DNA of 63,925 nucleotides, the filler included, from Sluysia triapertura (lineage: Eukaryota): assembly GCA_046118255.1 (NCBI GenBank). It is 5 parts of 5 records of this genome, joined end to end, with 100 filler letters (N's around TTAATTAATTAA, not from the genome) between each part and the next. Parts side by side here need not be neighbours in the genome. Positions count along the whole stretch, not along the records: positions 1 to 11,903 come from JBJNIA010158046.1; 4 more parts are not named here. One strand, 5' to 3'. Each line of letters starts with the position of its first letter. The stretch's first letter is position 1. Positions 1 through 25,330 of the stretch are shown one piece after another. Position numbers and translations under genes: made by a program. The notes under the pieces were generated by a model. It had not been told where the DNA came from. It ran no database searches and saw only the letters and a program-made list of their open reading frames with translations.

Positions 1-260
1 TGATTGTCAGCATTTAATAAAGAGTTTCGTTAATAATAAATTGTGTTACGAATTTTTGTTTAATATTACATTATCGACTCGGTTTTGATTTTTACTGTCA
101 GGTACTTAAATTTGGGAATAATAGTTAGTGATACTATAAGAGAAGATTATTGAAAAAATATATTTGATATATTGACTATTCAAATTATCGAGATTGCTTT
201 AAGCTAACCAAGTTAATATTGAGACGTAATAGCCAGAAATTTTTAAAGACGCAACATTAT
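1..260 (+). repeat. Dispersed repeat family A/B, segment B; inverted copy at 10938-11192
   Basis: Blocks such as aagctaaccaagttaatat and ttttaaagacgcaa are reverse-complemented at 10938-11192, with the same order and spacing. Confidence 0.9.
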
Positions 261-762
261 CATTATTATTATTATTTTTATCATTATATTAATTTGTATT
301 AATTGAAGAAGTTAAATTTTATTTGTATTTTCTTTTATATTTGAATTAATTTTTTAATTATTTAAATATTTATTTCTAAATCGAAGATGTATTTCAATGA
401 AAGTTCTAAAATTAATTATAAATAATTAAATTAAAATTTATCAAATTATTTAATTATTTTTTATTGTATTATAATTTTAATGAATCACTCTGCTTTAAGT
501 AGAAATACGAAATTGAACAAAATTTATCATCTTCGGTAATAAAAATAGCGACAATACCAAAATAAATAAAACAAAGTTAATTGTAGGTGGAAAGATACAC
601 ACACTGTTTTGTAGGGATTCAAAAATGAACATGGAATAAAATATTAATTGTATTGTTAAAAAGTGTAATATCAATTAAATAAAATATCAAATATTCGAAA
701 ATTTATTAATAAAGAAACAACTAAACTTATTATTCATTCATTGATAACTAACAACATAGATT

Positions 763-2440
763 TTAACAATGGTTTGTTGTACTCAATTTTGGAAGTTGTG
801 GATTTGTAAAATGAGGCAATAATTTTAAAAGTTTAGATTCTTGAACTAAATATGTTTTTAATTGTTTAATTTTGAGAAGTTTATACCGATTTATAGTTTT
901 ATAAGTTTCGAGTACTAAGTAATCTCTTAAATAATCATTAAAGAAATAAATACGATTCATGTTAAGTGTGAAGTTTGTAATTAGGTTAAAATTTCGAAGT
1001 TTCCATGTAATATTTATACTAAGGATGGTCATCATAGTGCTTAGTAGGAAGATCTGCTGAATAGTGGAATTAGCTACGGTTAGTTTTAACAATATACACG
1101 TAACATCTACTAATATTTCTATAAACATAGGTTTAGACTTAAAATTATTGTTGCAGCTATTATATGACATTAACTTATCTTGCCAACTTATTTCTTTATC
1201 ATACTTTTTATAAGAAGACAATAATTTCACCTTTGGAATCAATGAGTTTGAGCTATCCTTTTTGTCTTTAAAAAAATACATAAAATTTAATTGAGATATT
1301 TTTATCATACATAACAAAACATTTATCTTCAATGAATAAATCTTCCATTTACTGGGATTTGTACTTCACCACATCTTATTGCTCTCCACCGTTCCAGTTT
1401 CTAAACTTGTCATACACGATACTTGATTGTGAACAGTCTTCCTCATAAACTTTCATAGATTCATTGTACGTGGAGTTGATTTAATACTTTCATTGACTGC
1501 CAGTGGTACAGTTAATTGTTGGCCTGGTAGAAATAAGTTAATCCTATTAACTCGTAGCGTAATAGAACATTTTGGAATAATTATTTCCATCTCTAAAGCT
1601 AACGATCCACTCGATCTCCGATTAACACTTTTCAATGGGTTCTTCAACAAACGTAATAAATACATGAAACACTTCTCAACTAATAAATATAATAGACTAT
1701 CTGACTCTGCATCAACGTATGTAGTAAATGGAAAAGTTGATGATTTACTTCCTTTTCGTTCACACTGAAATAACAGTTTATTAACTATGAAAATATTCTT
1801 TTCAAGCAATAGAATCGAATCGATTTTTTTTCTATATAACAATGAATTATACATTGTTAGACAAAATTCCTTTGACATATATATAATTGTTTCTGGTTTA
1901 TTTTGCCGATGACATAGTTTAGTACATAAATCGCTAGTGATTTACAACATATTGTTAAACGACGATCAATTTTACACCAAATTTCGTTTATAATAGAACG
2001 AGGAAGATAAATTTTAACATCAACATTAAATTAATGTAGGATATTACACAGTTTAAAACTAAATCAATTGCGTTCATTTGTATCAAGGTTGCGGCCTTCG
2101 ATTGTCCTGGTTGATCGTAAAAAATAAGTAAAATTTTGTAGTTTTTTGATACATGATATCGATTACAAATAATCCGTGAGCTGTTGTCAGAATCTTTATT
2201 GTTATAGTTTTCTAAGTCATCTTTAAATAGTTTCGTATTATCTAAATGTTTAGTTATGATTTCGGAAGTTCGATCAATTTTTTGTTGAACTTGTTCATCT
2301 GTTAACTGTTCTCGTTCTGATTTAGTTGATGATACCATATTATTAGAAGACAATACTAAATATACAAAGCTTTGTGTAACATCTAAATTTTTAGTCCACC
2401 GAGAATAAAACATTAAAAAATTTTTGTCAATGTGGTACAA
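763..2440 (-). pseudogene. Decayed orphan gene (three tandem ORF fragments of 150, 141 and 189 aa), cargo of cassette copy 1
   Basis: Same-strand ORFs separated by short stop-containing gaps. AATAAA on the minus strand follows near 703-708. No recognisable family motif. Confidence 0.5.
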
Positions 2441-2502
2441 ACTAATTAGTGCTAATAATCATACTAAAATTTTTGATGCTGATTTACAGTAAATTGTGGT
2501 TG

Positions 2503-2650
2503 GCCATCCAATCACGACTTCGAAATAGTAAACTACATGATATGTATAATGATTGGATGGCAGTGAAAAATAATGAATATTGATGATTACCATCATCAAT
2601 ATTGACAATCTAATAACATTTGCGAACAGAAATGTCAATATTGATAACGG
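2503..2650. promoter_or_regulatory. Double-hairpin module: inverted CCAAT pair plus ~18-bp stem hairpin
   Basis: gccatccaatca (2503-2514) and tgattggatggc (2550-2561) form a perfect inverted repeat; ccatcatcaatattgaca (2590-2607) and tgtcaatattgataacgg (2633-2650) match at 16/18. Confidence 0.7.
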
Positions 2651-2697
2651 CAGTAACACTTTTGATATGGTTCGGACTTTTAAATAATTTAATAATT

Positions 2698-2749
2698 GAT
2701 AATAATAATAATAGCAATAATAATATTGTCATTATTATTATTATTATTA

Positions 2750-2788
<39 letters not shown>
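2698..2788. repeat. (TAA)n followed by (TTA)n microsatellite
   Basis: Direct reading; it produces the spurious poly-Ile ORFs in the track. Confidence 0.95.
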
Positions 2789-2789
<1 letters not shown>

Positions 2790-3677
2790 GAAACAAAGAA
2801 TAATTCGCATAAATCTTGTCTTTATAAATCTTAACTACATGATCTTTTCTTTCTAAATCTTAATTTCTCACAAAAAAAATTGAGGAATAAAAGCTATTGA
2901 TATTATGTGAAGGAGCAACGGTAGTGTGGTACACTTTGTTTCAGTTATCATTGTTGCTTCATCATAAGGAAATGAATTCTTTAAAGCTGTATTGAATTTA
3001 TTTTTGAAGATAAAATAAATGATTTGAGCTGTGAGTAAAATGACGAATGATAGAATAATTCTTGACGTTTATTTAAAGTTTATAGTTGGGAATAAGATAT
3101 ATATACTGAATATAATGGTTTGAAAGGCTTGTTGAAAGGTTATAGTTTATTAAATTTAAAAGACAATTACAAAATACATCTTGGCGTATTTACAATGTTG
3201 TTGTAGAATGTTAATAATGGTTATGTGTAGATGAAATGGGTTTGAATTAGTATAACTGATTCGAGGTTGTAACGTAAATGTTTTCTCTGTTTCAGGTACT
3301 TGTTAATGCTGTTGAATGGTGTTGATGTATTTGTGATTTGAATATTATATGTTGTGGTTGTGATTTGGTTTGGGAGAATGACTATAAGTAAATGTTATGG
3401 ATTATTCGGTATTAATTATCAAAGTATAGTGTGAGGTGATTGATTGAGAGTATTAGGCGAATTGTTTGAGATGTATATGTTGTTGAATTGTTATAAATGT
3501 CGAATATTGTTTATGATGAATCAGTTAATGTAATTCGATAGTGTGAAAGGGGTTTATTTTAGATGTTATGCTTTTTGTGAACTAGTTGTTGAAATTTGAT
3601 AATGTTGAGTTTGATTGTGATTTGAATGTTGTAATGTTTTAGTGAATTCTTTTGAATTATGGGTGTTGGCCACTACA

Positions 3678-4150
3678 GTAATTTAAGTAAAGATAGATTG
3701 AGTGGAGTAAAAAAGAAATGATGGTTGATACTTATGACGTTTTGATAGACCGTAATTGTCAAAGTTGTTATTTTCAGTCTAATTCTCAAAGAGATTTGGA
3801 TGATTCGTGTGAGAGTGTTTGATTGTGAGACTTGGGATCTACCCACATTGAAGATCCATGCATATGATAATATTTTTATTTGTTAATACTTTTTATCATT
3901 TTATTATTTTAAATAAAATAAAATAAATAAATAATTTTTTTGGGAGGGGGGAAAGTATCTCAAGAATGGTTTCGCGAGGACACCAGCCATATTTATTTTA
4001 TTTTGAATTAAGTATTTTATTTTTAGCAATTTTATTTCAGACCCTTCCCAGTTTATTTTAAAATATTTTGAATTAACCATTTGATTTTTAGCAATTTTAA
4101 GTTAACTTCGTGGGCGACACTCGAAAACTTATAATTTGTATTTGATTTTT
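3678..4150 (+). repeat. Dispersed repeat family A/B, segment A
   Basis: Homologous to 25525-25645 (gtaatttaagtaaa...taattgtcaaagtt) and inverted at ~11440-11903 (ctctttgagaat, tatgcatggat, tatcaaccat). Confidence 0.8.
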
Positions 4151-4290
4151 TTGTAATCATTAAATAATTCAATTTTTGTTTATTTTATTAAAAAACTTAA
4201 TCTTTGGGTTGAATAAATAGCATCATCGAAATAAGGAAATTTGTTATAATTTTATTGTAGTGGATATTTCTTTATTACTTTTAATTTAAC

Positions 4291-4403
4291 GTCGAACCCG
4301 GGACCATCGCTGCGCAGTTAGAATACTCTACCACTGCGCTATCAATTTCAGTTTATTATATATCAATTTTACCAAATGGCTCTTTAGGCCTTTTACCCCA
4401 ACA
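4291..4403 (-). mobile_element. tRNA-bearing TG..CA mini-element, 3'-truncated copy
   Basis: The minus strand begins TGTTGGGGTAAAAGGCCTAAAG and contains an A box (tagcgcagtggtagag) and a B box (gggttcga); flank atac. Confidence 0.8.
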
Positions 4404-4777
4404 ATACGAACTTCTTTGTAAATTCTTTAGAGATGTTAAATTTTAAACTGTTATTATGTTTTATAGATGTAGGATTATAAAAGACAATGGAAAACAAATT
4501 AACGATTATATTTTTATTATAAGTTTTACATCGAAAAATTTTATTTTTCTTATATCTCTTCTACATATGTTATGAAGCTAATTTTGCACTTGATAGTCTA
4601 AAATAAAATTTAAATTTAAATTATAAACAAGTCAATTAAAAGAATTAATTACATTCTGAAGGCACTGTGAAACTTGAGAAATCCACGTAAGTATATTTTG
4701 GTTTTGAAAAAATAAGTAGTCTGTTTATTTGATTTTAATAGAATCGACTTTCATATTATTTTGAGATAAATAAATTT

Positions 4778-5724
4778 CTAATCTAGCACAAACGTCTGTT
4801 GTACCACATTTAGATAATTTTGCGTAAGTTCTGTATAAATATTATATAATTCGTAAGCCGAAATGTCATAGCCGCCTCTGCAAATACTCATACAAATGTT
4901 TGTAACATCACCACAATGAGTAATTTCATTCAATTTATCTTTTCTAGACTTTCTATAGGCGATCAAAGAATTTGAAAAATCTAATAACTTTAGAACATCT
5001 CTGAAAATTTGAACTATTAATGTAGATATAAAATCAAAAATCATGTTATCATTGACAAGATGGATGAGATAACTCATCACATGATGAGCAGAGTCACTAC
5101 GCACATTTATTTCTTTCGTGTCTAACAAAAAATATGATAAGTGATCACAAAACGTTATTGTTGATTCATTATGAAAAGATGTAAAATAGCTGAACATGTA
5201 GTAGAACATTGTCTTGTGCTACAAATCAACATATTAAATGAAATGGCGATACTATCATTAATACAACCGTAGCCTTTCAGAAAATCAATTAAGAAAATCA
5301 TAGATTCATTTATATTATTCATTTGACTTAATTTAGTATTACTTTTCTTCTCTTTAGACATATACTCTGAAAGTAAATGAGCATCGGAAAATGTAATATA
5401 TCTTGTTAAAACGTTCGCTATTAGCGACTGAACTAGTTCTTTAAAAAATAATAAACACTTACTATATGTATATATTGGATCCAATGACTCAAAACTATAA
5501 ATTTGAAACAATTCTTTTATCCATACTAAAACTGGAACTATGTATTCTGAATTATGTACGAGGATTTTATAACATCGTTCTATACATTCAAAATTGACGC
5601 ATTTGAATCTTGCATATAAATTACTAATTATTAAACTAAATAATTTGCTGCTGTTCTCTGTTAAAACTAAAGACAATTTCATTAAGATATCATATTGTGC
5701 TCCAAGTAGTTTTTTTGGTTTCAT
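4778..5724 (-). pseudogene. Frameshifted orphan gene (189 + 143 aa overlapping ORFs), cargo of cassette copy 2
   Basis: ATG at 5724; two overlapping ORFs suggest one ~315-aa helical protein with a single frameshift near 5155-5209. No known motif. Confidence 0.55.
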
Positions 5725-5897
5725 TCACTGATTGATGAAATAACTGAATTTTTATCCATTCGATTAGGCATTAATTTACTTCTTTTCAGCATTATTTACG
5801 CTTTAGAATTTTTTTGGAATTCGATTTTTCTACAAGTTAATTTTATTTGTGACTATCAAAATTACTTTAAAAAATTTTTGCATATAAGTTTATTCTG

Positions 5898-6057
5898 ATT
5901 AGTTGCCCAATCAGAGAGCGTAAAATTTGATAATCAGTGTAGCACTGATTGGACAACTAATATGAAGAATCAAAGTAGCATAACTGAGTGATAAGCCATC
6001 ATCAGTGTTGACGTAAATCTGTTTACAGTAATGAGCAATGTCAGCACTAGTGATGGT
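5898..6057. promoter_or_regulatory. Double-hairpin module, copy 2
   Basis: attagttgcccaatcag / ctgattggacaactaat (16/17); gccatcatcagtgttgacgt / atgtcagcactagtgatggt (15/20). Confidence 0.7.
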
Positions 6058-6839
6058 AGTTACAATTTTTGATGTATTATGTTAAACTAATGAAATTTAA
6101 TATCAATAATAATAACAATAATATTATTATTATTAATATTAATTAAATACAAAATATTAAAAAAAGCATAAACTCTTGTTGAACTCTGTCTTTCATTTTC
6201 TTCAATACTTCTTAACATATTTTGAACCAAAATAAAATAAAATTGATAGAATTGAGTGTAATTACAACAATAATAAGAGGATCAATGTTATAGTTATTGT
6301 TCTTATTAAACTGCACAAATACTGAACACGATCTTACTTTAAATCCTTTAGATTTCTAAACATATTTGAAACTAAAAATCTTTAAGTAAAGGTTGGTTTA
6401 AGTGAATATGAAAAAGATAAATTATAGTAGAAGTCTTAATATATTCAAAAGGTTATTGTACAATGTTAATAATGTGATTGTTATCTTTCTATTTTTAAGT
6501 GGTATTGTCTTTTGTGCTGTTAGGGATTATGTGAAACAAATGATGAATTTAAAATGTTGAAATTGATTCGAAGGTGTCGGGTGGCTAATTTCAAATGAGG
6601 TTGTAGTTTGATTGTTATGAATGTCGAGTAACATATTTTTGATGTAAATTGATGGTATTGGATGTAAATGTGGTTTGTATGTTATGAGATTGTGGGTATG
6701 ACTTGATTCTGGCAGATGAATTGTTTTAGTGAGTGTAGATAAAATTAAAGTGTTGAAGAATTATTTTTTTTATAAAATTTAATAGTAGTGAAGGTTGACC
6801 ACCGTATCTTCAAGTTGGCGATATCGTATTTGTATTAAT

Positions 6840-7978
6840 GACAAAATTGAATCGTTGATCGAATTGCAAGAAAATTTACGAAGACATAGTGAAGACATAG
6901 TGATCGGATTGAGTTAACTCTCTTTAAAGAAAAATCAAAGATGAATCTATCGATAAAATTACAGATTAACATTTAATAAATTGATAGATAACTATATCAT
7001 ATCAAAAAGAGTTACCCACTTATTTAAATCTAATACTACAAGTCGATGCTCCTTGAATGACCAAGATGTGGATGATGAAAAATTTAATCAACTAAAACGC
7101 TGTAAATGCGTGATGATAAAAGGTTTCTATGATTGTATTCAGCAGTATTGTTTAAGTGAATATGAATTACTATGTTTCTGACCAAAGCGAAAAATCAAGC
7201 ATTAAATATCAAGTTCTGCTAGCGCAACCACGACACGTAATTAGTCATGATAAAAGAACGAATTTGAAGGAAACTTCAGATTTAGAAGATGCTACTGAAC
7301 ATCTACTAAAAGAGTTAGATAGTCCTCAGAATATATCAAGTAATATTATCACGCTATTTGCATACCATCATCAATGAATACGACAGGTTTCCAAGTAGTT
7401 CCACCACGGCTAAATATTAAGTCTCATCTAATCACAAATGTTCGAGACCAATCCATTTCCAAGCCATATTTGAACACAATTTCTATTAATCAATTACGAA
7501 CGGCACAATGTCCCAGCGAACTCGATTCTTATAATAAGTGTATAATGCGTTGATTGCGCTATCCAAACTTTCATAATATAACCGAAATCAACAACAGTCA
7601 TGAAAGGACACAGGATCAATTGGCAACATCATTAAAACATGGAATCCAGCAATCATGTACACAATTAGATATAATTACGCCCAATGATATCTACAATGAC
7701 ACTCTTAATATTAATAAAGTAATTTTGATTTATCTCGTTATTCATAAAGATGTAATTATCCAATTTTTATTTTTTAGGAATCTTCAATCTGCAAACATAC
7801 ATTCACAATAATATATAATTCTCGAACTTTAAAATCGTTAATATCGAAATTAAGTTTACGTGTTTATAGGAATAAATTTTTATATCTTGTTTGTGCTAAT
7901 TTTTATAACTTTTCGAATATAATACTGATAAAGAAACCTGATACAAGAGTTGTGAAACATTTTCAATATTGTGTTTAA
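6840..7978 (+). pseudogene. Decayed spliced orphan gene with a 59-nt intron (7719-7777)
   Basis: Run of + strand ORF fragments. Removing GTAATT...TTTTAG opens a further ~66-codon frame to TAA at ~7978; AATAAA at ~8032. Confidence 0.4.
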
Positions 7979-8074
7979 ATTCAATGAATTATTATACAAA
8001 TTATAATTCAACAGCTTAATCATAAATTTTTAATAAACGGTGTCGAGAGCCCAATTTCACTCCAAAATAGTAAT

Positions 8075-8890
8075 CAGCCCATGCCTAATTTATCATCTCT
8101 TCATCATTCTAAATATGAAAATTTCAGCATTTTTTTAATTGAAAATTAATTAAAATTCTACTTTGTTCAATATGAAGGCTTTCCTCGCATGAACTCCATC
8201 TGAATATCTCTTTAAAACACATACAAACACAATTACAGTTTTAACATAGCATTCCTCATTCAAAAGTTATTGACACAAACGTAATTTTTCTTAATTAATT
8301 TAATAAATATTTTAATTAATTATTTATTTATTTTAACTTATTTAATTCTAAGTTTAATTATGGTTGTAATGTTGTTAAATACTTTATAAGGTACTCAGGA
8401 GGCTCTAGATGTTTTCACCTTCACCATTCTCAATACTTTTCTACTTTTTTATTTTAATTATAATGTATCAAATGTATCTTTAGTATTATTAACCATGATT
8501 TTAATTCTTTAACATTTCAAAAGTTCCAAACATTTTACAAGATTACCCGAAAGGCTCAAAAGTCTTCAAAGTTTCTAAAAGATCAACATGATCTCAAATG
8601 ATCCGAAGGTTCAGAAGTTCAATGGTATCTTCATACTTCAAGACATCTTTCCAAACCTTACTTAAATCTTTATAATGGTCTCAATACCTTACAAAGATCA
8701 TTGGGACTCCAGGTGTTCTTCGGTTTCAGAATGATTATAAACATTTTATTGTTCTAGAAATATTTAATTACATTTATATTATCAAATTTCAGCTATTTTA
8801 TATCACTTTTTAATCTATTTTAAATTCTCTTACCTTTTAACCTATTTTCTTGGTAATTGCAACATTTTTATGAACTCTTACAGGGTCTGT
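8075..8890 (+). repeat. Dispersed repeat family C, copy 1
   Basis: Shares tagcattcctcattcaaaagttatt and ctctagatgttttcaccttca with 52745-53430 (+) and matches 24625-25330 (-). Confidence 0.9.
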
Positions 8891-9654
8891 TCTAATTTTG
8901 TTCCTTTTAAATTTCTTAATTATCAAATATCCTCTTAGTTACAAATCTCAGTAAAAAATTATACTCTTCTAAATCAATAAAAACGACTTTACCTTGTCCA
9001 TTATTAAGTGTTAGTTTTACATTTTAAAAAATTCTTTAATTGAAATTATTCAAACGACGTTTATTCCTCCAACAAAAAAGAAAACAAATAAGTGCACGAA
9101 AGTTTATTTGGACAAAAAAATGTAAACTACAATAATAGATATAAAATATTATGACTAGAGTTACCTCTACGAATAATAATGAATTTTAGCAATTACACTG
9201 TGTCTACCTAAAACTAGATTTTAATTAAACAGTTTAAGTAAATTTTATTTTTTTTGCTAACGGAAAAGGAATCCTACACAATTAACTTACTGATAACTCA
9301 GATTTTCAGAAATGCCAGGATCAATTGATTATTGTTAATCCAAACTGCGATCGCAATGTTTCGAAATAATACCAAATGTCGTCTTCTTAAAAATTTAAAT
9401 CACGTCTTCAATTCAAAAACATGTTCTAGATTAAATTAACAGAGTTTCGATCACGATCGATAATAACGTACACTCCATTTTTAACGAAATAACTAGTGTC
9501 TTTAAAAACTATTTTAGTGAGGCATCAGCAATATTACACAATAATTATATTTTTAGATAAATAATAATGATATTTTGGTACAATCAGTCAGGTAGATAAT
9601 TTTTAGGTAAAATAGTCAGGTTAATGTTTTTTTCTCACAAAAATTAGTTATTAT

Positions 9655-10745
9655 AGATATCTATGTAAAATTTTGTTTAAGACTTATAGAATAAAGTAAA
9701 ACTTTTACGTGAGTCCACCAACGTACTAGGCTTACCGATTAGATCTAGTCGTTGGATTTATAGATAAAAGAATGGGGGTAATTTACTAAGGATAGATGCA
9801 AATTTAGATTGAAGTTTTCAATATTCTGCTAACTGAAAAAATAACAATTAAATTTTGTATTATTAAGATAGTTTTCGAAAATCCTATGAAAAGGATTTAT
9901 AACAATAGATTTTACGATATCAGAATTAAATTCTGATAAAACTTTGAGGCGCAGGCGATTTTATGATTTTGAAACTATGAAATAAAAGTTATTCTTTTAA
10001 ATAATCATATATTATCAACAATAAAAAAATTTACAACGGTAATTTAAATATTTATAACAAATTGATAAGAATTTACGTAAATTAACTTAAGGAGTTAATT
10101 TTCAAATAATAAAGTTTAAAGAACTGTATTTTACGAAAAAACTATTAAACAGTTTTTTAAAGTCTTTATAAAGCAAAGATTTTACTTGTACTTTACGTTG
10201 ATACTAAATTCGTACGAATAACTTAACAAAATAAACTAACGTAAAACTATTTTTATAATATTCTGGCCAAGTATAAATTTTTCAGTAGATTAATTATCTT
10301 ATGAGTTATATAAGAATTCGTAGAGACTTGTTATGTAAAGTAGTATGAAAAATTTTTAAAAAATAAATTATGTAACAAAAATTTTAAAAATAAATTGTGA
10401 TTTATGTTTTTTTGTTTGTTCTTTTATACATCTTTTATGTTGGCCTTGATTTTTTAATAAAAATAAATTAATAAAACAAAATATTTAATAAAATTTATAA
10501 TAATTTGAAAATATTTAATAACATTGAAAAATAATATTAAAGTACTTATGTTCGTTTTTAGATCTTCAAAATTTTTTCAAAATAATTAATTAAAATCCAG
10601 TGTTTTTAGAATAATTAATTGAAATCCAATAAACAAAATTCCAATATTAATAATAAAATATTATCAAAAAACCAAATCAATAATTTTATGTATACAAAAA
10701 TTAAATTCATAATATTTGGTAGTTATGCATTCACGATCACAATTT
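9655..10745 (+). repeat. Dispersed repeat family D, copy 1, with GC-rich structured core at 9709-9755
   Basis: cgtgagtccaccaacgtactaggcttacc is also present at 27576 onward (+) and 22089-22136 (-); aaatcctatgaaaaggatttataa is shared in inverted form at ~21875-21900. Confidence 0.88.
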
Positions 10746-10937
10746 GTCATTATTAATTTGTACAGATAAATACAGATGTGAACTTTCAGGTTAATTATTG
10801 TTGTTGTTGTTACTGTTATTATTATTATTATTAATTTTTGATATTAGTATTATTATTACTTTGTTCAGAATGTTCAAATTCTGAATTCATTTCCACATTT
10901 TACTCTGTAATTGGATCAAGCTTTTTTGTTTTAATAA

Positions 10938-11903
10938 TATTGCGTCTTTAAAATTACTAGCTATTACGACTCCATATTAACTTGGTTAGCTTAAATGAAC
11001 TTTAATAATTTAAATAGTCAGTATATCAAATATATTTTTGCAGTAATCTTCTTTTATAATATTAATAACTATTATCCCCAAATTTAAGTTCTTGACAATC
11101 ACAATCAAAAATAGGACAATAATATACTATTAAACAAAAATTCGTGAAATAATTTATTATCAATAAAAATCTTTACTAAATCCTGAGAATCACTAAAACG
11201 ACAAAAATAACAGTAGCGATATAATAAAATCAAATATAAGACAAAACAACCAGGAGTGACGCAACAGACACCAACACTAACAAAATATCTAGAAAATTAA
11301 TAGTAATTATATCATTTAAGTATTTTAGGTCAACAGAAATTTCTAAAGATAAAACACTTAGTATTTTGATAAATTAAAGTGAGTAGGGATATTCTTCTAA
11401 AAGTATCTTAAAAATATCTAAAAATCAAATATTAACGTTAACAAAAATTACTTGGGGCATTTCCCAAAAACTATTTTAGTAGTAACAAAAAATCAAACTT
11501 TTAAAAATTTACAAAAGTTACGTTGGGTGTACCCCACAAAACTATTTTAATAATGACAAAAATATCAAATTAATCGCTTATATTAAATTAAAATATAATC
11601 TATTACTTATCTTATTTTAATATAATAAAATAAAATAAAAAAATAAATGAAAACTTTACCCTATGCATGGATGTTCATACCATTGTGCTATTGCACCATA
11701 GTGTCATCGTTGTTGTTGTGTTATTGTATTATTGTGTTGTAAAAATTTTGAAATCTTTATTTTATACCTTCTAATCATCCAATCAATTCACAATCTCACA
11801 ACCAAAAACTCTCTCACACAAATCATCCTAACCTCTTTGAGAATCAGACCGACATGGTATGGTCTGCCAAACTTTATTACAAATCTGATTTACTATCAAC
11901 CAT
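10938..11903 (-). repeat. Dispersed repeat family A/B, long inverted copy linking segments A and B
   Basis: Reverse complement matches 3720-4150, ~25990-26010 and 1-260. Confidence 0.8.
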
Positions 11904-12003: not shown

Positions 12004-13059
12004 TCTTCAAATTTGATTTCATATTGTTATTAATAATTCTTATTTTAAGATTATTTCTTAACTGTAATAGTAAGGTTTAATGTTTTCAAATTTTAATTTC
12101 ATATTGTCCTTATTGAAACACACGTATACTTATACTTAGAGAAATTTAATTGTAATTTCTTACTAAATTTTGAAATTAAATTAAATGCATGCAATTTCAT
12201 TGTGAATTAAGAATCAAGCATTTTAATCTTAGTAATTTTTTAAGCATCATTATTTTAACAATGATATTAAGATGAATAATTATTTTAACATTATTTTATT
12301 AAAATTAAGTCTATTTTAAAATGAACATTATATAAAATGTTAATGGTAAAAATGAATATTATGTGTACAAAATATTACAATAATATTAATTTTTATTTTT
12401 ATTTGTATTAGTCATTTTGAATATGAGTATTAGCCATTTACCTAATAAAACATTAAAATGCACAAACAACTTGGCTGTAAAGCAATTCATTAATGTATAG
12501 TAATGATTGGCTAAGTTATGGTAAAAATCGTACATGCACAAAAGTAGTTCGAAAAAACATCAATAGTAAGTGATTTTCGTGCGGGTTGTATAGAAAACTT
12601 TTTTACAAATAATATAAAGTTAAAATGAAATTGTTCTGACTTTATGATATGATGAATTACATATTGATTAATAAAAACCCTTAAGAATAGTTAAATAATA
12701 AAATCAACAAACACAATTAAGCTTAATTCTCCTCGTCGTTATTATTACGTTATTTAAAATAGCACCGACACAATTCGACCAATCTTTGACAGACTTAAAC
12801 AAATTCAAGTCATTCACAATATTTCAACGTAACTACCACTCTGCTATCACAACAAAATTATAATATGATTATAAATATAAATATAAATATAATATAATAA
12901 GATAATATAAATATTAAACACAACAATACCACAAAACAAATCATAAATTTATGAGAGTTATATTTTAACAAAACACAAACCACAATAAATTGCTGTCAAG
13001 AGCATACAAAACGAACCACCAGACTTTAAACCACATATTATAAAATAATTAAACGTTAC

Positions 13060-15300
13060 ATATTTCAAAATAAGTACTAACACATCCTTTCTTTCCGCAG
13101 CTGCATTTAACTTTCTAATAATAATAATAAAAATTAATAATAATAATAATTATTATTATTATTATTAATAAAATAATAATAATAAATTTTATTAATATTA
13201 AAATTATTATTGAGTATAGAAATAGTTAATAATAAAACATTAATAATAATAATACAATAATAACAATAATAGTAATTTCAATTTTCGTATATTAGAAGTG
13301 AGAATTATAAAACTCTAAACAATATATTCTAAAGTTATTCAACATTGAAAATTAAGTAATCACACGTACTTTCCTCCTGAACGTTCATTGAACTTCCTAA
13401 AAATAAAGTAATAATAATAATAGCATAATTATACTAATGTTAATATTATTATAATGATTATAAAAAAGTTAATAAAACATCAAAAATAATAATATAAGAA
13501 TTAGAATAATAATTTTAATATTCATATATTTGTAAATAAATATAATATATTCATTAAATTTTAATATAAACAAATATAGTGTAATATTCATTATTCATTA
13601 ATTTTTATTTAAATAATAATTTATTGTTTTAATTTTTCATTATTATGTTATTTTAATAGTTAAGAATTAAATTTTAAGAAAATAATTTTCGACTAAGGTA
13701 AATAGTCATTTCAATAGTTTTACTACTATTTATTTATTAATATTATTGAATTTATTTGGACTACTACTATTTATTCATTTGTTAACTATTAGTTATTTGA
13801 ACAGTTATACTACTATATTATTGAATTCGGATTACTACTATTCATTATTAACTATATCATTTATTAACTATATAATCTGGAAATTTATTGAATTTATTTA
13901 GAAATATTATAAAATACGATTAATTTCGAAAATATTATAAGAAAGATTTTGTATTAAAAGAGCAAAAATATAGACAAAAACAACAGAAATTATCTTCAGA
14001 ATTGCTTTTCAAAATTATTGAAGAATTATTTTATGAACAATTTACAATACAAAGACTCAAATTTATTTATCCAAGACATTTTAATAATTGATCTGAAACA
14101 AGAAGATTCAAGTGAGAAATATATTTTCTTTTTAGTCGAAAATTACTAAAATTATAATCTAATTTTACTTATTAATAATTATATTGATTCATAATTTATT
14201 AAAATTATCTTTTCATTTTATTATTTGTAAATTAGACAAGGATTGGAAATAGAGTATTCGGGCGCAATAGTAAATTTTAGATTAATAATTATAATTAAAC
14301 CTAATTATTAAGTTTGAATCAAACATTGACGAATAAAATTCCATTAAAATCGAATATTAATAGTCACGTAATTTCATTTAGTCGATTATTAAGCACTTCT
14401 ATTCTTAGCAACAAGGACAAATAAAGTGATTCATACCTCCTGTTAAGTTTGATATAAAGTGATAACATTAATAAAAAAGTACAGAATTATAAAAATTTAT
14501 AAAGAGATTTAAATTAATAGTAAAGAGCAAGAGTTCTGCAAATACAAATAAAGTTTATAAAGTATAAAATAGCATTCAGATATAACAATTCAGATATAAC
14601 ATTCAGTTAACAAAAATTAATAACGTAAGGTCACAGAAATAACGTATAAATTCTTAAAGACTTAGAAGAAGCAAAGAGAATTTTTCATTTTAGCAGAATA
14701 AGCAAAAAAATATTTATTACACTTACATTAAAAGTTATTACATAATAGTAGTGATAATTATGAAAATCTTAAACAAAATATTGTAATGTACTTAAACATT
14801 GCATATTTAAATTTAAATACAAATACATACTTTTTTTCTGAACGTGCATTGAACTTCCTAAGAATAAAGTAATAATAATATAATTACTACTAATATTAAT
14901 AATAATAACAATAATGATAATAATATATAACATTAATGTTAAAATTAATATTATGATTAAAGAAAAAGTTAATAAATCTTTAATGATAATAAACATAATG
15001 ACAATAATAATGTGATTACAAAGATAATAATAACAATAATAGTAATTTTTATATTCATATATTTGTAGTAAAAATTATAAAACACTAAACAATATATTCT
15101 TAGGTAATTCGAAGTTGTAAATTAAGTACTAACACATCATTTTCTTTTAAAGGTTCATTGTACTCCCTAAAAATAAAAGTAATAATAACAATAATAATAA
15201 TAAATAAAAATAACAATAATAAAACATCAATAATAAAACAATAATTATATCAATCTACATTTAAATAATAAGCACTAACGTAGTCCTTTCTTCTTCCGAA
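13060..15300 (+). repeat. Degenerate ~280-300-bp tandem repeat interrupted by a ~1.2-kb insert (~13550-14770)
   Basis: Recurrent taagtactaacacatc...gttcattgaacttcctaaaaataaagta motif at ~13070, 13352, 14815, 15122 and 15268. Confidence 0.7.
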
Positions 15301-15304
15301 ATAC

Positions 15305-15372
<68 letters not shown>
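15305..15372. repeat. (TAA)n microsatellite
   Basis: Direct reading. Confidence 0.97.
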
Positions 15373-15543
15373 TAAAAATAATGTATTATTCGTGATCACT
15401 ATAGATCTATATGCGGTAACGCAACTCAATCCAAAATATTATTATAAAAACCTCACATCAACAAAACATCCACCAATCCATTAAGTTCATTATAAAACAT
15501 AGAAAACAATCAATTCATCACTTCTTTGGGTAAAAGAAGTTTA

Positions 15544-16945
15544 TTAAATTAACATTAACATTATTTTAACTTCAAAATGCCTGTTATAAAATTGGAGATA
15601 ATTGTACCTACATTTATTTACAAAACAAAACAGTATAAAAAATTTTAAATCATATTGTTTATTGGATTTGAACTGCAAACCGAGTTGGGAACATGCTGTC
15701 GTATTTCTGACATTGTGAATTCTAAAACAAAAATCAAACGTATAAGTTCGTTGTATCAAATTAAAAATAAGATTTACCTTATAATAGTTATAATCAGTAA
15801 AATCGTTTTCCACTTTTAACTTGTATAAACTTGATAGTATACTAAAAATTTGTTTACAAAAAAACTTGACTCGTCTGTGTGAGTTTCAATATTCACTGTG
15901 ACTAATGTTTGACCATAAAAGACTACTGTAATTTTATGATCGGAATTGATTCCATAATGCTTCATCTTTGAAAAAGTGTGACATTACAACATCGATCATT
16001 TCACCGTTTATCAAGGTTATTCCACTAAATTCTTGGAAATCCGCTACTGGAGTACTAATATTTTCTGCGATGGTATGTTTGAATCCATTCATTATCATGT
16101 CGAATGATATTCTATGTTTCACATCTAGATATAAATTGTTGAAATAAACAGTTGTTATTTTGTAATTTCAGACTTAATTTTGCCATTTCAGATCGAATTG
16201 ACACTTTTACATTAGTTCTATCCACTTGGACGATTTCATAACTAACTTTAAGAGTTTCATCTTTAAGAGTAGATAGGTTTATCGAACAAATGATCTGTGC
16301 AAATACTTGAAAAAAAGGATGAATTTCCTCTGATACGATTGCCTGTTAATATATAATGGTGACTTAAACAAACAGCATTCATAATCGGAATGATACTGAA
16401 CACAATCGAGCCTAAAATTTCACTTAAGTAATCAGGTGGTGTTCTTTTCATGATTCCATCTTCCGTGAATCTATCGTATAAATCCAGATGACTTCGATTC
16501 TCTTTAATAATTGCCTTACTTTTTATAGGGGTTGATAAATATATTTTAGTAGTTTTATAAACCTTTGTACAAACAATAACAATTTGTTTCATCATCGAAG
16601 TAACAAATTGTATAGGTAATTGATTTATAAAAATTGCAATAAAATTTGATTAGGAAACATCAAATTCATATTGGTGTTGATCATTAACTATTATTGACAT
16701 GGTTAGATTCAAATTAGATATGCTTATTTTTAGTCTTCTTTCTCTTGCTGAGTTTGTTTCTAAATATTCTTGATTTCCTTGATAAATATCAATTAAATTG
16801 ACAATCGTATTGCTGTCACCGTTATAAACATCACCTGCTGAAATGAGAAAACGATATATTTAAAAATTCATGAGATAATACTTCGAGAAGTCTATTGATA
16901 TTACATATACAAACGGATTTATCATTTACCTGTAGATCAACATCA
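15544..16945 (-). pseudogene. Decayed orphan gene 3b (ORF fragments of 110, 62 and 89 aa)
   Basis: Collinear minus-strand ORF fragments downstream of the 17187-17254 inverted CCAAT pair; polyA-like signal near 15540. Confidence 0.45.
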
Positions 16946-17186
16946 TTAAGCAAAGAATTGAAAATATGTTTATGAATTCGAATTAATAATTCTTTAAATC
17001 ACTTATACAAATATAATTTACTTCATCTTTGAAGCAATTATAAAGAAATTTTGTTTTTTTGAACATTTATAATAAATTTAATATATTATGAAATGTTTCG
17101 AGCTCAAAAATAGTATTGAACAATTTTGCATTTAACGACTAACAAATATAATAATAAAAACCAATGTATAGTCATGTTATTTGAGA

Positions 17187-17254
17187 TGATTGGATGTCCA
17201 ATCCAAGAAAGCAAAAATATAGTATAACGATAGCACTGATTGGACATCCAGTCA
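17187..17254. promoter_or_regulatory. Inverted CCAAT pair upstream of gene 3b
   Basis: tgattggatgtccaatc / gattggacatccagtca (16/17); tagcactgattggaca is identical to 5940-5955. Confidence 0.65.
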
Positions 17255-17325
17255 ATTGCCGTTTCTAAAACGTGTAGACATAACAAATGACATGTGTTTG
17301 GAATTGTAATTTTAATTGACCAATA

Positions 17326-18640
17326 TTAATTAATTTTAAAGATTTTAAAATTAATGTTTAAATCTTTGGTCATTATTATTAGAAAGTACGTTATATGGCT
17401 GTTAAAAATTTGATTGAAACTTAATTTGTACTTTAATATAATTATGAAAATTTTAAATACCTTTGCATCAAAATTTATAATCAAATGAACAGATACATGA
17501 ATGTTTTTATTTAAAATTTTGAAACATGAATAATTTAAATTTAATTTTTTTGTTCTGAATGTGGCATGAGATAGTGTCGATATTCTGTCACCTGAAAACA
17601 AATTATAGTTATAATTAATAATAATTAAATAACAAAAAGTTGTTACTTTAATTTTAGCACCCTTATGAATATTACCGTTGTTACGACCAAATTTGACATA
17701 AAGAGTATTACTTCCGATGTTATGATCGTAGACATTATAAGACTTTATAATGTCTTTATCATCATTTGTATTATTAAAAGACGTTTGATAGTGAATTTAC
17801 GTCTGAAGTTGCAACTTCCACATTTCTTGACGATATAATAATCAAACTTAGTACTAAAATTATAACATTGATGATGTAAGAAAAATTTTATATCTAAAAC
17901 ATGATACTTGCGAGTATTGATGCAGTGATATTTGTATTTTTGTTCGAAATCATCGGGCATTAATTTTTTATTCGAAGGTTGTCCGTTTCTTGGTTTATTT
18001 TTATTATTTGATCACCAGTTTGAGCTGGTTTCTCATGTAATTGCAAGACTTCTATATGCCGAGGATGGAAAGCATCAATAAAAGAAGGATCATTTGTTGT
18101 CAAAGTATTTTGGTTATGATTATCTCCAAAATCTTTGATTAAACAATCACTAAAAATATGAATGTCGGAGAAATATTCCGTAACTTTACACTGCTTCAAA
18201 AATCTGTTTTGAATCATTTGTACTACTTCTTTGTAACTTTTTAAATCTCTCGTAGTTACTAGCGACTTCAATGGTTGAACTTCAGTTTGAGCAATGTATA
18301 GTGTAAAGAAATGGGTCGATAAGTAACATCTTGAATTGTAATAATAACATTGCCATTTTCGATTTTGAACAAATTTTTATCAGCACTTGGTGACAACTAA
18401 TCAATAACTAACTCGACTTCTTGACGTGATAAAAGTTGACAAACTTCAGATATATTTAGATATACTATAACATCTAAATCCATCGCCGCTTTCTTGACCA
18501 TCGTTATTTCTTTCGTTAAATTCATGAGTACAATGTTTATACAGTAATTAGTTGTTGATGAGACTGGTAAATCTAAATTTTGCTTGTTTAAACTTGTTGT
18601 ACTTGTATTAAATCGTTTGGTAATTGTTTTAAGTTTTTCA
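17326..18640 (-). pseudogene. Decayed spliced orphan gene 3a with a 55-nt intron (17592-17646)
   Basis: ATG at ~18640; ORF fragments of 103, 71 and 91 aa; minus-strand GTAACA...TTTTCAG intron precedes the last fragment. Confidence 0.45.
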
Positions 18641-18738
18641 TCAAGAAAAGATATTGTAAAATTAAAACAGTTACTTTTATTTTTTTTTGATTTTGTGATT
18701 GAAAAATTTTAATTTTTACTAATAAATTTTGCATCACG

Positions 18739-18922
18739 ATTGGTTGTCAAACCAAAATCGTTTGAAGAAAATGAGTAAAATAACTGATTTGATTGGATAG
18801 CCAGTAGGGTTAGTTAGTTTGTTAATGGAAATCGATGATTGATGTCAACTGTGATGACAACCTTCATCAACAGTGGTATAAAATTATAGTTGTAAAACAA
18901 AAATGTCGCTGTTGATGAAGGT
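18739..18922. promoter_or_regulatory. Double-hairpin module, copy 3
   Basis: Imperfect CCAAT pair at 18739-18805; accttcatcaacagtggtat / atgtcgctgttgatgaaggt (17/20, remaining positions G-T). Confidence 0.7.
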
Positions 18923-20559
18923 AGTAACTCAGTTGATTGAGAACTGCATTATTAAAATTTTATTTTGAACAATTTATGTTAAAATTGATGATAATAATAA
19001 TAATAACAGAGTGTTATTATTATTATTAATCAAGAAAATTGCATTAAATCTTTGTTTATTTCTTTTACACGAACTTTTCTTTTATATCTGTCTTATTCTT
19101 AAAATATATAAATTGTAATAGTGAAAAGAACCTTCAGGTTTGTAAATGTAGTGGTGAGGCTTTACCTTCTGGTCTTAGGTACCTTTTTTGCTGTTTTAAG
19201 TGACTTTGCATGATTGGTTCTAATATTTGACTGAAATAATATTTTTGTCTGGAATGTTATTAATATATGAATAGTTTTGAATAATGCAGACGTTAAAGTG
19301 AGCGATGAAGATGTTTGACTATTGAGATTGATAGTACAAGATGTAGGTTTAAGGTATTTATTTTATTTGGGAGTGTTTGTTGATTGGTTGTGAATGTGGA
19401 TGTAATTAAATTGTTTGGGATGAAAGGATGTAAAATAAAATATTCTGAATGAATATTTAATGTGTTTTGATGGTTTAAAACGTTATTGTGATTTGGATGT
19501 TGTGAGGTGCTGAATAAGTGTTCTTGATGGATTTCTTGCTATGAGTTGATAGTATTCTTTATTATGAATTTATAGACTTGAGGTGTTTAGAGAAGTAAAA
19601 TTTTGTTTTTGTAGATTTGTGAGATTTTGGTATGTTTAAAATGGGATTTTAGTAAAATTTGTAGAAGTTATAAGGTTGGCCACCACAGTCGATATTATTT
19701 ATGTAAAGAAGTAAATATTATAAGAAAAGTAACTGTTTTTGATGAATAAAATTTAGGATTTGAATTGAAAACTGTCATTATTAAGTTGCTAATTTAGTCG
19801 ACCAAGCTAGAATGTGCTTCTTTAATCGTAGAAAAATCTAATTTTAAATATTCAAAAATAACTATCAAAATTTTACTTGTGTGATGATAGTAATTTGTAC
19901 TACTAATTATACATGTACATATATTATTCTCGCTTCACCTTAAAAATAAGGTCTTGTAGTCATAATTATTCGTTTTATGTTTATTATAGTAATGATCATA
20001 ACTTGTAATGTTTATTAATGGCTAATATGCTACTAATAATCAAATAAAATTTAATTTAATTTGATTTATTTTAATAATCATATTGTTGGCATCTTTTCTA
20101 ATTACTCAACAATTATAGTTTTTATAATTTATGGGTTCGCCTATAATCTACGGTTTAAATCCCAAGGAAGACGTAGTTATAGGAGTGACAGTCAAAAAAT
20201 ATTCTGCAATAAGGAATCCTTAATCTTTAGTGAACAATTTACTAATTAAAGTCTAATTCTTTAACAATTGTCAGAATGTTTATTAATCTTTCAATTTATC
20301 TTAAATTATCCTTAAAACTAATCTACGTCACTGAACTGTAACAAAATTACTTTTTAGTCAAAATTATGAAAAACTCAGTTACCCCCGTATATATATTATA
20401 GACAAATTAAATAAATAGATTAAATACAAAAATAAATATAAGCAATGTACAATAATATATGTTCTAGGATTTCACCTAAGATTAATATAAACAAGAATTT
20501 AATTAAGATTTTAACCCAGGTGAATACTTTGGCTTGGAAATTGTTTATGTTAATTTAAG

Positions 20560-20735
20560 TATATTTTAACGCAAATAATTTTTGTGAACAACTTAAAATA
20601 AATAGCTTACGATTTTATGGATATTTGAAAAAACAAAGTGTAATGTTGGCTGTTCGACTAATTAAAATCGAAATCCACGAAATATATTCCAAATCGGGTT
20701 TAGCAGCTGATATAAATTGTCCACGAATAAGCCCA
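20560..20735 (+). repeat. Dispersed repeat family E; inverted copy at ~26565-26740
   Basis: Collinear motifs cttacga, atcgaaat(c/t)cac, attccaaatc, ttagca and aataagc. Confidence 0.6.
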
Positions 20736-21499
20736 CGAAGTTTTGTGATGTTTTTCTTTTAATTGTGACTCAAAAAATCCAAATCCACGAATATTCCAAC
20801 GAAGTTTTGAGATTTCTCTCTTTTAATTGCACTTTTAAAATTGTGTTTTTTAAAATTGTGTGATTTAGCTAGAAATCGCAATCTATTTATACTAAACTAA
20901 TTTTTGTGAACTATACCGAAAGACTTTAAAGTATGCCGGCGATTTATTTGAGGCAATTATTTTATAAAAGAAAACTGTGATTATTTGTTTATCGAAATAG
21001 AAGAATTTTTATCTAAAATAATAAATTTTATTTATCAAAATAAAAGAATTTTATATAAAATAATAGAAATATTAATTAAATTTGTACTTATTAATTAATG
21101 TAAATTTTTTCTAAAGTTCTTTATAAAGTTATTAAACAAAATTTATTTACAAAATTTAATAAATATTTAATATTTTGTTGTTTTAGGTAATCATATTTTC
21201 TTATAATTTCTAATATTTACAAAACTAACGTAAGTAATTCTAATATTTCTGCATATTATTAAACTCTAATATTTCTATTAGTTAAAATAATTTTGTTTTA
21301 ATTATTAAAAATAAATATTTTTTGTTTTAATCTGACCAAAGTTAGCTAAATAAGTATTTAAACATCGCAAAAAATGCACAAGACACACAACTATTATATT
21401 AACTAAAGAAATGACAATTGCATTAGCACACATTTTAAAAATATTTCGTTGGAAAATTTTCAGTTGGACAAAAACTATTGAAACATGACTGTTTTTCAG

Positions 21500-22190
21500 A
21501 AAGGACTTCTTGGCCAGATTTTTCATAGTCTATATAAAATATTTGCTTTAGTTTATTATATTAAGTTTGGATACAGTAAGTATCTACGTAAAATCGAGAA
21601 AAACAGATTTCGTAATAAATTTTGAAACTTATAATAGTTTCTCGTAAAATATATTGTTCAATTATTATTAAAAGAATTAACTGAAAGTTAATTAGAGCAA
21701 CTTTTCTATTAATATCTATATATCGTTTTTATCAAGTTATTTAATTTATGAATATATAAATTCGTTGAGAAATTCTTATTATTAACAACTAATTTTAATA
21801 GTTTTAAATTTATAAAATCATTACTATAGTAAAGCTTTATTCAGAATATAAATCTGAAATCAAAAAATCATTTATTATAAATCCTTTTCATAGGATTTTC
21901 GAAAATTATTTCAATAATACAAAATTTTCAGTTAACAGAATATTTGCATCACTAAATTAGAATTTACTCCCATTCTTTTATAAATTTTATTAAATTATAT
22001 TTAAAATACCTCCAGACCTTAATTACAGTTAAGCAAGAACTAAGGTATCTTTCTTAGTCTAATAAAATCTTTTCAATTTCAAGAAAACCCAACGGCTAAC
22101 CCTAACTGGTAAGCCTAGTACGTTGGTGGACTCACGCATAAATTTTGCTTTATTCTATAAGTCTCTTTTAAAATTTCACGCGGATATTAT
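21500..22190 (-). repeat. Dispersed repeat family D, inverted copy
   Basis: Reverse complement of 9655-10270, including the core ggtaagcctagtacgttggtggactcacg. Confidence 0.88.
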
Positions 22191-22203
22191 TTTGGAAAAA
22201 GCC

Positions 22204-22461
22204 AAAGAAGTTTGAATAACAGGCGATTTTAATATAAAAATGAATGAAGAATGTCAAACAAGTAAAACATTCATCCAATTAATAAATAGATTCAATTTAA
22301 AATTTAAAATTCATAAATGTAGAAATATATCAGATTTATTAATAACCAATATTAATATTAATATCGTTACTGATATAAAAGTAAATGAACTATTAGATAT
22401 ATCTGATCATCATTTATTTACTTTGAAAGTAGAATTTAAGATTACAAATTGTAAATTATAA
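22204..22461 (+). mobile_element. Non-LTR retrotransposon AP-endonuclease fragment (L2/CR1-like)
   Basis: Translation ITGDFNI...ISDLLIT...DISDHHLF contains the APE motifs GDFN, DL and SDH. Confidence 0.8.
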
Positions 22462-23445
22462 ATTCATACAAGCAAGAAAATAGAAAGAAAGGTGACGTGT
22501 AAAAAGAAACAGAGATCGTAATGATAACAATGATATAATTGTTATATTTTAATATGATGATTTTGCTGATATTATTATTATAGTTATTTTATGATAATCA
22601 TGATAATCATATTATATAACAATAATCCTAATAATTATTATATATTTTAATACAATTGGATTTATAATAACAATAATTATGTACAACGACTAGGTTTGAT
22701 TTTTTGAATGAGTCAAGTAGTTTATTTAGTGTTTTTTATGTAAGAAATGTTTTATGTGATGAAGTGTTGAAATTTTGATGTGATTTCATTACAATTGTTT
22801 ATTCATCATGATATTACTGTAAAACTAAATGCGTTCAATATGTTAAGTCAAGAGGTTAAGTCAAATTATCACAAAAATCAAATATAAACTTATCATCATA
22901 ATCAAACTTAAACAAAGTTAATTTAATGAAAACATGTATCAAAGTGAAATGAAAATATAAACTCTATCGTCAAATTAAAACATCGAAAATTAATTTCAAA
23001 AAATATGAATTCAATATCATCAAAAGCTTATAATCAAAATCAAGTATTATCACATTAAATAATTAAATGAAATAAGAAACAGATGAATATTCTTACTCGC
23101 AATTACGCATAAAAATAATAGTAATATCAAATTATCAACATTTAAAATGCAGATTAAGTTTATCGTAACCAGAATAAACTTATCTCATAAAAGAAATATC
23201 AATATAACATTCTAATAGCCAAATTATTCTGGTGTTTTATATGCCATGCAGTGAACTCAAGATTAAGATATTATAATTGTAAACATGACACAAAATAATG
23301 TAATCCTCATAAATAACATTTTAAACAAACTTCAAAATACCAAATCATCAAACAGTACACAAACACAATTCTTATAATATTATACACAATAATTATTGTC
23401 TTATTATTATATCCTTATTGTTATCTTTCATTATTATCTTATTAT

Positions 23446-23547
23446 GACTATAAAAAACAAAATTGTAAGACGGGGCTGAGAGCTAAGTAGTGTGAAGCGA
23501 GAGGCTGGGGTTCGATTCCCGGTCAGTCTATTTATTGAAGTCTTAAA
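23446..23547 (+). mobile_element. tRNA-bearing mini-element, 5'-truncated copy
   Basis: tgtaagacggggctgagagctaagtag...ggttcgattcccggtcagtcta...gaagtct. Confidence 0.8.
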
Positions 23548-24624: not shown

Positions 24625-25330
24625 ATTTTTCATTGAAATGTTGGTATTGCCCAGCTGTGGATCTGGAAACGAATGAAAACATACAAAATCATAAAATTAC
24701 GGAATAATTGATACAAAGTGATAGTTAAAACATTATACATATTGTTGGAATAAGAATAATGAAGATGAAAACAATTATAGTAGCGTGGATAACTGATGAA
24801 TAAATTGGGATTTCTCATAAACGAGTTTGAGATGGACTTTGGATCCCTTTGAACTTGCGGACTTTGAGCCATCTGAGACTCCATTAACCTTTAAGCATTC
24901 TTGAAACATGGATAGGCATGTAAGGTCTTCGATTAATCTTAAAATCTTTAAGATATAGGAGAAATAAAATCATTGTCATTGGTATTAAGAATAAATCTAG
25001 TAAAGTAGTAATTAACAAGAAGGAATCAGAAAAGTGAAGGTGAAAACATCTAGAGCATCCTGAATGCCTTATAAACTACTAAATAACTTTAGAACCTTAA
25101 TAAACATAAAATAAGAATAAGTTTAAAAATGCATCAATAATTTAAAATTCTAATTAACTTTTTGAATGATATTTGAATGCGAAATTGCTATGTTAAATTT
25201 GAAAATGTGTATGCATTTATTTTTAAAAAACATTTAAAAGCCTTAATATTGAGCAAGGTCAAACTTTAAATATGAATTTTTAATACTTAGAATGATGAAA
25301 ATATAATGAATTCAATATGAGGTGATTGCT
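24625..25330 (-). repeat. Dispersed repeat family C, inverted copy
   Basis: gaaggtgaaaacatctagag and flanks are the reverse complement of 8075-8890 and 52745-53430. Confidence 0.88.

Follow-up and report, generated by a model that had tools for sequence, protein, structure and literature searches.

Repeated pairs of hairpins with covarying arms in Sluysia triapertura, a candidate microRNA precursor pair

Introduction

[quoted passage not shown] In fly microRNAs, as presented in PMC3753935, the loop is the least conserved part, the seed and the distal part exceed the centre in conservation, divergence affects both arms of clustered loci, and the ratio of single to double changes is high. The MirGeneDB criteria for a microRNA, as given in PMC12539619, are a hairpin that is imperfect and has 16 or more paired stem bases and, for the reads, an origin from both arms, 5' homogeneity and 2-nt offsets. 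Inverted arms are also carried by mobile elements of the DINE-1/HINE type (PMC4067079).

The cassette described here is a small non-coding unit, present in several diverged copies with two hairpins each, in a window of 63,925 nucleotides (the whole stretch of Sluysia triapertura DNA that was analysed, filler included). It resembles the two Tribolium families in each of the respects listed above, and is set apart from them by its predicted seeds, which differ from those listed in PMC4691753 (AGUACG, AGUACA, CACUGG and others). Unlike the Tribolium clusters, the candidate has antisense orphan frames and a skewed tract beside it, and is known from sequence alone. With the Drosophila mir-309-type clusters, as described in PMC3753935, it shares a least conserved loop, seeds conserved above the centre, divergence of both arms and retention of the hairpin, but it shows a larger share of double changes, a long hairpin-1 loop, and no sequence homology to that type was found. 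Palindromic inverted arms, a conserved core, a microsatellite and a location within a repeat family are common to the cassette and to DINE-1/HINE as these are described in PMC4067079. In contrast with these elements, neither a matching repeat at the far end nor a 3' palindrome was found for the cassette, its arms are 30-35 nt apart instead of 3-22 (PMC4067079), and the likeness between copies runs on to the left of hairpin 1.

Results

The window consists of five contigs joined via N linkers (1-11903, 12004-27173, 27274-41121, 41222-52631 and 52732-63925); it is AT-rich, with a GC content of 19-29%, and tRNA-like short repeats and GT-AG signals were read in it by eye. Together with a sub-threshold Mos1 match given below, these signals point to eukaryotic, insect-like DNA. 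Cassette copies 1 and 2 and cassette copies 3 and 4 sit on two different contigs. On the plus strand, broken orphan minus-strand frames are followed by hairpin 1, then after only 28-57 nt by hairpin 2, an AAT and then an ATT run, and a G/T-rich tract; the copies are about 58-70% alike in their non-coding parts, and this likeness extends left of hairpin 1. The AAT run and the tract are present in three of the four copies, copy 3 being hairpin 1 only, with neither hairpin 2 nor a tract behind it. In copy 1 the AAT and ATT runs occupy 2699-2789 (no strand assigned), and copies 2 and 4 have shorter versions behind their hairpin 2. The tracts, all on the plus strand, are 0.5-0.9 kb long with a G-C skew of 0.50-0.60: 2900-3830 in copy 1 (skew 0.59; its likeness to the two others is about 60%), 6300-6800 in copy 2 (0.50) and 19100-19700 in copy 4 (0.60). 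A possible third hairpin (2903-2966, plus strand, z -2.3) is confined to copy 1, as no fold forms at the corresponding places of copies 2 and 4. Further strongly skewed tracts lie by AAT/ATT runs that are accompanied by neither hairpin (28200-28750, 42140-42560, 12800-13430 and 14740-15600); the first two share a likeness of about 60% with the tract of copy 4. Beside one skewed tract, two short palindromes centred on TGATTGG (28840-28866 and 29129-29147) look like single hairpin-1 arms; the hairpin-1 model does not detect them.

Stems were scanned over 62,747 bases, with AAT, ATT and TA runs masked and 72 block shuffles as control. Sixteen stems scored at least 16, against a mean of 8.6 per shuffle. 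Six scored at least 24, a level reached in 0 of the 72 shuffles, and these are exactly hairpin 1 at 2503, 5898 and 17187 and hairpin 2 at 2590, 5996 and 18860. The hairpins are confirmed as real, and the scan reproduced the stem coordinates and sizes reported in an earlier note on this DNA for both of them, as well as its hairpin-1 spacer of 30-35 nt. All hairpins are given here on the plus strand. Hairpin 1 of copy 1 (2495-2571; stem 2503-2514/2550-2561, 12 bp, 35-nt loop) is the weakest duplex, with 15/20 pairs. In copy 2 (5894-5967; stem 5898-5914/5945-5961) and copy 3 (17185-17258; stem 17187-17203/17238-17254) it has 17 bp, loops of 30 and 34 nt, and 17/20 and 18/20 pairs respectively. 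In copy 4 (18735-18811) the left arm is decayed, 16/20 pairs are formed and alternative folds are preferred. Hairpin 2 has stems of 18-20 bp and loops of 23-25 nt in its three copies: copy 1 (2590-2652; stem 2590-2607/2633-2650; 17/20 pairs in the 63-nt candidate precursor), copy 2 (5996-6058; stem 5996-6014/6038-6056; 18/20) and copy 4 (18861-18923; stem 18860-18879/18903-18922; 19/20, with a further lower stem).

The earlier note counted four copies of hairpin 1, of which those at 2503, 5898 and 17187 stand. The fourth stem, CCAATGAAAT at 54032-54068, has a score of 16, which arises 8.6 times per shuffle; being on another contig, with neither hairpin 2 nor a tract, and missed by the hairpin-1 model, it was rejected. 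The decayed hairpin 1 at 18735-18811, absent from that count, has a right arm that pairs 11/12 with the copy-1 left arm. Covariance models built from the hairpin copies found no further copy within the window.

Hairpin 2 aligns gap-free across 106 columns, whereas the flanks need many gaps, and each hairpin-1 arm is itself palindromic. In free folds, hairpin 1 of copies 1 and 4 pairs just 12/22 and 13/22. Hairpin 2 folds better on the plus strand in two of three copies; on the minus strand, folding is as good or better for hairpin 1 in two of four copies and for hairpin 2 in one of three, copy 1, where it is more stable on that strand (-26.4 vs -14.8 on plus). A 12-bp palindrome found in copy 1 only (2576-2603, no strand assigned) overlaps the hairpin-2 left arm and competes with hairpin 2 on the plus strand; it looks like a fold-back copy.

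The arms do change together between copies and stay paired, as had been claimed. In hairpin 2, 51/54 cells are paired and 5/18 pairs changed on both sides, as high a value occurring in 1/500 shuffles; in hairpin 1 the figures are 58/68, 5/17 and 3-5/500, in both cases with only 3-4 copies and with stems selected for pairing. Compared with the free decay of a perfect stem, 34/36 cells are paired where 25.5 are expected (copies 1-3), 42/48 where 34.7 are expected (all four) and, in a further set, 45/54 where 36 are expected. Both comparisons support the proposal of the earlier note that pairing is under selection or that arms are copied from each other. The double changes occupy neighbouring columns in both hairpins and for this reason may be few events; a block of them may be what one template switch would produce, and template switching is described as able to create and repair stems (10.1101/2021.04.15.439925). 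The covariation is real, yet alone it is no proof of function. Double and pair-keeping single changes stand at 5:5 in hairpin 2 and 5:2 in hairpin 1, between paralogs that are about 30% diverged. Most stem mismatches are transitions, also as had been noted (14/16, against a background of 628/1031), with a p of 0.02 that is inflated by the way stems are delimited. G-U mismatches outnumber A-C ones by 9 to 5 (p 0.42), too little to tell the strands apart.

If 22-nt arms with 2-nt overhangs are drawn on the plus strand, hairpin 2 measures 63 nt with a 19-nt loop and 17, 18 and 19 of 20 pairs (3/3 copies), and hairpin 1 measures 74-77 nt with 30-33-nt loops and 15, 17, 18 and 16 of 20 pairs. This 2-nt-offset geometry of the predicted hairpins is compatible with a microRNA. 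Six of the seven hairpins have at least 16 paired bases (16-19/20), while hairpin 1 of copy 1 has 15. The other three of the four annotation criteria cited above concern reads, so that the cassette is treated as a microRNA candidate and not as a member of the class.

Arm positions 2-8 have an identity of 0.90 in each of the two hairpin-2 arms and of 1.0 in the hairpin-1 3' arm (7/7 columns in four copies). Identity is 0.40-0.53 at arm positions 9-13, 0.34-0.36 in the loops and 0.27-0.42 in most flanks. The hairpin-1 5' arm is not seed-like (0.67), and the eight bases behind hairpin 2 are likewise conserved (0.75). In a strict register the hairpin-2 3' arm begins one base later and its positions 2-8 are invariant at 5/7. 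Where paired columns vary on one side only, the 5' end of an arm is spared in 10/11 (one-sided p 0.006), the registers and this asymmetry test having been set post hoc, after the alignment had been seen, on 3-4 copies. With that same restriction on registers and copies, the hairpins show the evolutionary signature of microRNAs, a least conserved loop and seeds conserved above the mid-arm, in agreement with the fly microRNAs of PMC3753935. The single-to-double ratios, 5:5 and 2:5 columns, are not the high ones expected of microRNAs. The seed-like profile would make sense on the plus strand only.

Rfam gave 0 matches in the window at the gathering threshold, the best weak matches reaching 24-27 bits against thresholds of 70-160. 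A 19-bit Rfam match to mir-2_2 on the minus strand lacks the seed and was set aside. H/ACA and C/D snoRNAs were discarded by eye, there being no pockets and no conserved D box. The hammerhead ribozyme core is CUGANGA...GAAA, and it occurs in 0/8 strand-regions of the four cassettes.

All four copies have minus-strand frames of 128-189 codons within 1.5 kb to their left, against 0.1 frames of 130 codons in a shuffled window; the frames are too long for chance. Broken frames of 156, 162 and 200 codons left of copy 1 (763-2458) have no homolog found; the same holds left of copy 2 (4778-5724) for frames of 189 and 146 codons, in different frames, with a low-confidence helical model. Left of copy 3, broken orphan frames (15934-16929) include an intron-like stretch at about 16838-16929 (GT-AG by eye), and orphan frames of 156, 138 and 103 codons are found between copies 3 and 4 (17326-18708). 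The blocks are unrelated to one another (0 matches). Among 20 proteins from these frames nothing exceeded the Pfam cut-off, and among 10 proteins no PHROGs match was convincing. Searches with the flanking frames returned no homologs apart from one repetitive weak match, no PDB match, no viral loci and no usable Atlas match, and an AlphaFold model of one had a pLDDT of 48 and no fold match. Elsewhere in the window, 30449-31867 (plus strand) holds an intact 472-codon orphan frame (458 aa from 30491-31864) without a Pfam match above cut-off. At 43087-45210, minus-strand orphan frames of 257, 177 and 130 codons with a higher GC content lie between two direct repeats of about 170 nt that are 85% alike (43087-43247 and 44997-45167); no Pfam, PHROGs, PDB or viral-contig match to the frames was found, and this segment looks like a captured foreign segment.

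Region 15400-27100, with copies 3 and 4, was matched at 80% likeness to the one public sequencing run found to contain this DNA (X1), which may be related to the source of the assembly and is not independent of it. Summed contig depth is 355-907 in 10/10 bins of 15400-19309 and 3243 over the tract; for comparison, single contigs with 0-3 differences have depths of 10-18, and the two lowest bins 39 and 66. Summed depth is not a copy number and shows only that copies 3-4 are repeated in both their frames and their hairpins. In the same run, a joint links the end of the copy-4 tract to a very high-copy repeat of depth 6e5. Among the 40 variants listed of 1031, none falls inside the hairpins, which carries no weight.

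A scan for the cassette pattern gave 0 matches in viral contigs and four in metagenomes, three of which do not fold into the stem; the fourth, the insect-type contig L002, has no hairpin 1. It carries CCATCATCA...TGATGATGG arms at the same spacing as the cassette. Its arms contain a CTGATGA...GAAA core and form an inverted pair of minimal hammerhead-like motifs, which we take to be Penelope-type. General support only for this label is found in 10.64898/2026.07.22.740005. Such pairs occur at 787-887 and about 1130-1420 of L002; the first has the TGTCCAAT word in common with hairpin 1, and arm words in common with hairpin 2, and these shared words were judged coincidental.

Discussion

The reading that best fits the sizes and the conservation pattern is that the cassette is a multicopy, lineage-specific microRNA precursor pair, to which we give a probability of about 0.5. 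We infer strand, transcription, processing and function as follows. A cluster of two microRNAs, hairpin 1 and then hairpin 2, would be transcribed on the plus strand and would have been multiplied along with its surroundings. On cutting by Drosha and Dicer, hairpin 2 would yield a 63-nt precursor with arms beginning CCWUCAUC and AAUGUC, and hairpin 1 a long-loop precursor of 74-77 nt with a 3' arm beginning UGAUUGGA. Selection would maintain the seeds and the pairing, while letters in the middle of the arms would drift and be restored in pairs, possibly blockwise through template switching. Copy 1 is the poorest case for a microRNA, with 15/20 pairs, a hairpin 2 that is better on minus and a competing palindrome, and the preference of copy-4 hairpin 1 for other folds also counts against it. 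Further points against it are the 30-33-nt loops of hairpin 1 and its 5' arm, the frequency of double changes, the eight conserved bases behind hairpin 2, the short distance between the two hairpins and the lack of a match in Rfam. The gap-free alignment of hairpin 2 and its better plus-strand fold in two of three copies speak in its favour. The position of hairpin 1 upstream of every minus-strand frame block is unaccounted for by the microRNA model. If the model is true, covariation between paralogs would by itself have revealed a new lineage-specific microRNA pair, whose predicted products can be tested; the pair would also illustrate the spread of microRNA genes within a repeat, which is useful and of an already known kind. 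Among the three candidates put forward by the earlier note, the pre-miRNA pair is the one that fits best, through its duplex geometry and its seed-like conservation on the plus strand, and it is still a candidate; the NF-Y dyad promoter is disfavoured, and the replication or packaging origin survives as a live rival, the specific known signatures that were tested being absent.

This last idea belongs to a broader alternative, possible though clearly less probable than the microRNA pair, in which a mobile or virus-derived element with captured orphan frames would use the hairpins as signals in its DNA or RNA (sites of nicking, priming, packaging or recombination). Covariation would arise because the protein of each subfamily reads the fold and because one arm serves as the template of the other while the element is single-stranded, and double changes in adjacent columns agree with this. 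The repetition of 15400-19309, frames included, the joining of the tract end to a very high-copy repeat, the strong G/T strand skew adjoining the hairpins and the presence of hairpin 1 ahead of each frame block all favour such an element. So do the hairpin-1 arms, palindromic as in the mite HINE subterminal repeats, and the DINE-1 order of repeat, inverted repeat, core and microsatellite (both as described in PMC4067079). However, no partner repeat was found downstream (the best 13-base matches are 9-10/13 in 4/4 copies), CTAG is absent behind the hairpins in three of four copies, no Rep, transposase or integrase was found near the cassettes, viral contigs gave no match, and this alternative does not predict that every arm should be conserved at its 5' end. 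The known forms examined did not fit. A CRESS-type rolling-circle origin has the NANTATTAC nonamer at its stem apex; this nonamer occurs in 0/8 strand-regions. HINE/DINE-1 (Helentron) elements require matching subterminal repeats of at least 11 identical bases at both ends, and the best matches within the 1.1-1.4 kb to the right of each copy have 9-10/13. A head-to-tail junction model fails, as the copy-2 left arm pairs 7/12 with the copy-1 right arm and 11/12 with its own.

A combined reading, improbable in our estimate, is an undescribed, cassette-built mobile or virus-derived element in which hairpin 1 precedes each unrelated orphan gene, the hairpins being either the element's own opposite-strand microRNAs or recombination sites recognized by their fold. 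By analogy with integron cassettes, the recombination-site version of this same improbable reading would recruit new genes in an animal genome. The locus would matter much more if the hairpins proved to be working sites of a gene-capturing element.

It is about equally improbable that the hairpins form, in the minus-strand transcript, a structured leader that precedes the orphan frames. The long frames left of 4/4 copies (128-189 codons, against 0.1 per shuffled window at 130), the intron-like signals read by eye on the minus strand, and a minus fold as good or better for hairpin 1 in 2/4 copies and hairpin 2 in 1/3 are in line with a leader, but the frames downstream of it are broken and mutually unrelated (0 matches), and conservation would then fall at the 3' ends of the arms, for no known reason. 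We would give similarly little credit to the absence of any function, the hairpins being old inverted repeats of a repeat family that replication template switching holds paired. Template switching can create and repair stems according to 10.1101/2021.04.15.439925, and both the blockwise double changes and the extra palindrome at 2576-2603 fit; nevertheless, an identity of 0.9-1.0 at the arm ends against 0.35 in the loops and the fixed length of hairpin 2 are left unexplained. Least probable is that hairpin 1 works as a double-stranded promoter element whose inverted CCAAT boxes drive the minus-strand frames: its four copies contain nine CCAAT motifs, TGATTGGA is invariant and hairpin 1 is upstream of each frame block, but the two upstream purines of the NF-Y consensus RRCCAATCA (as given in PMC6313513) are present in 1/9 motifs and absent in 8/9, letters between the boxes co-vary across arms, which duplex binding does not need, and hairpin 2 has no CCAAT.

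Other repeated sequences were observed in the window. The very high-copy repeat, whose summed depth in run X1 rises to 6e5, occupies 24680-25650 and recurs at 8068-8639 and at 52765-53347; in its right part it is like the end of the tract of copy 1. A mariner transposase-like remnant lies at 33300-33533, with a sub-threshold match to the Mos1 helix-turn-helix at 33303-33533, and 22216-22461, with a depth of 1e5 in run X1, is presumably a remnant related to a LINE endonuclease, which it resembles by its motifs. A dispersed repeat is present at 23445-23619, 42615-42726, 54150-54357 and 54996-55146; its core is tRNA-like, the sequence upstream of this core is conserved, and the tail is made of ATT. 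Finally, 13026-13613 and 14742-15341 are made of tandem units, in which a TACTAAC branch-point-like motif and a pyrimidine run stand just ahead of AAT repeats.
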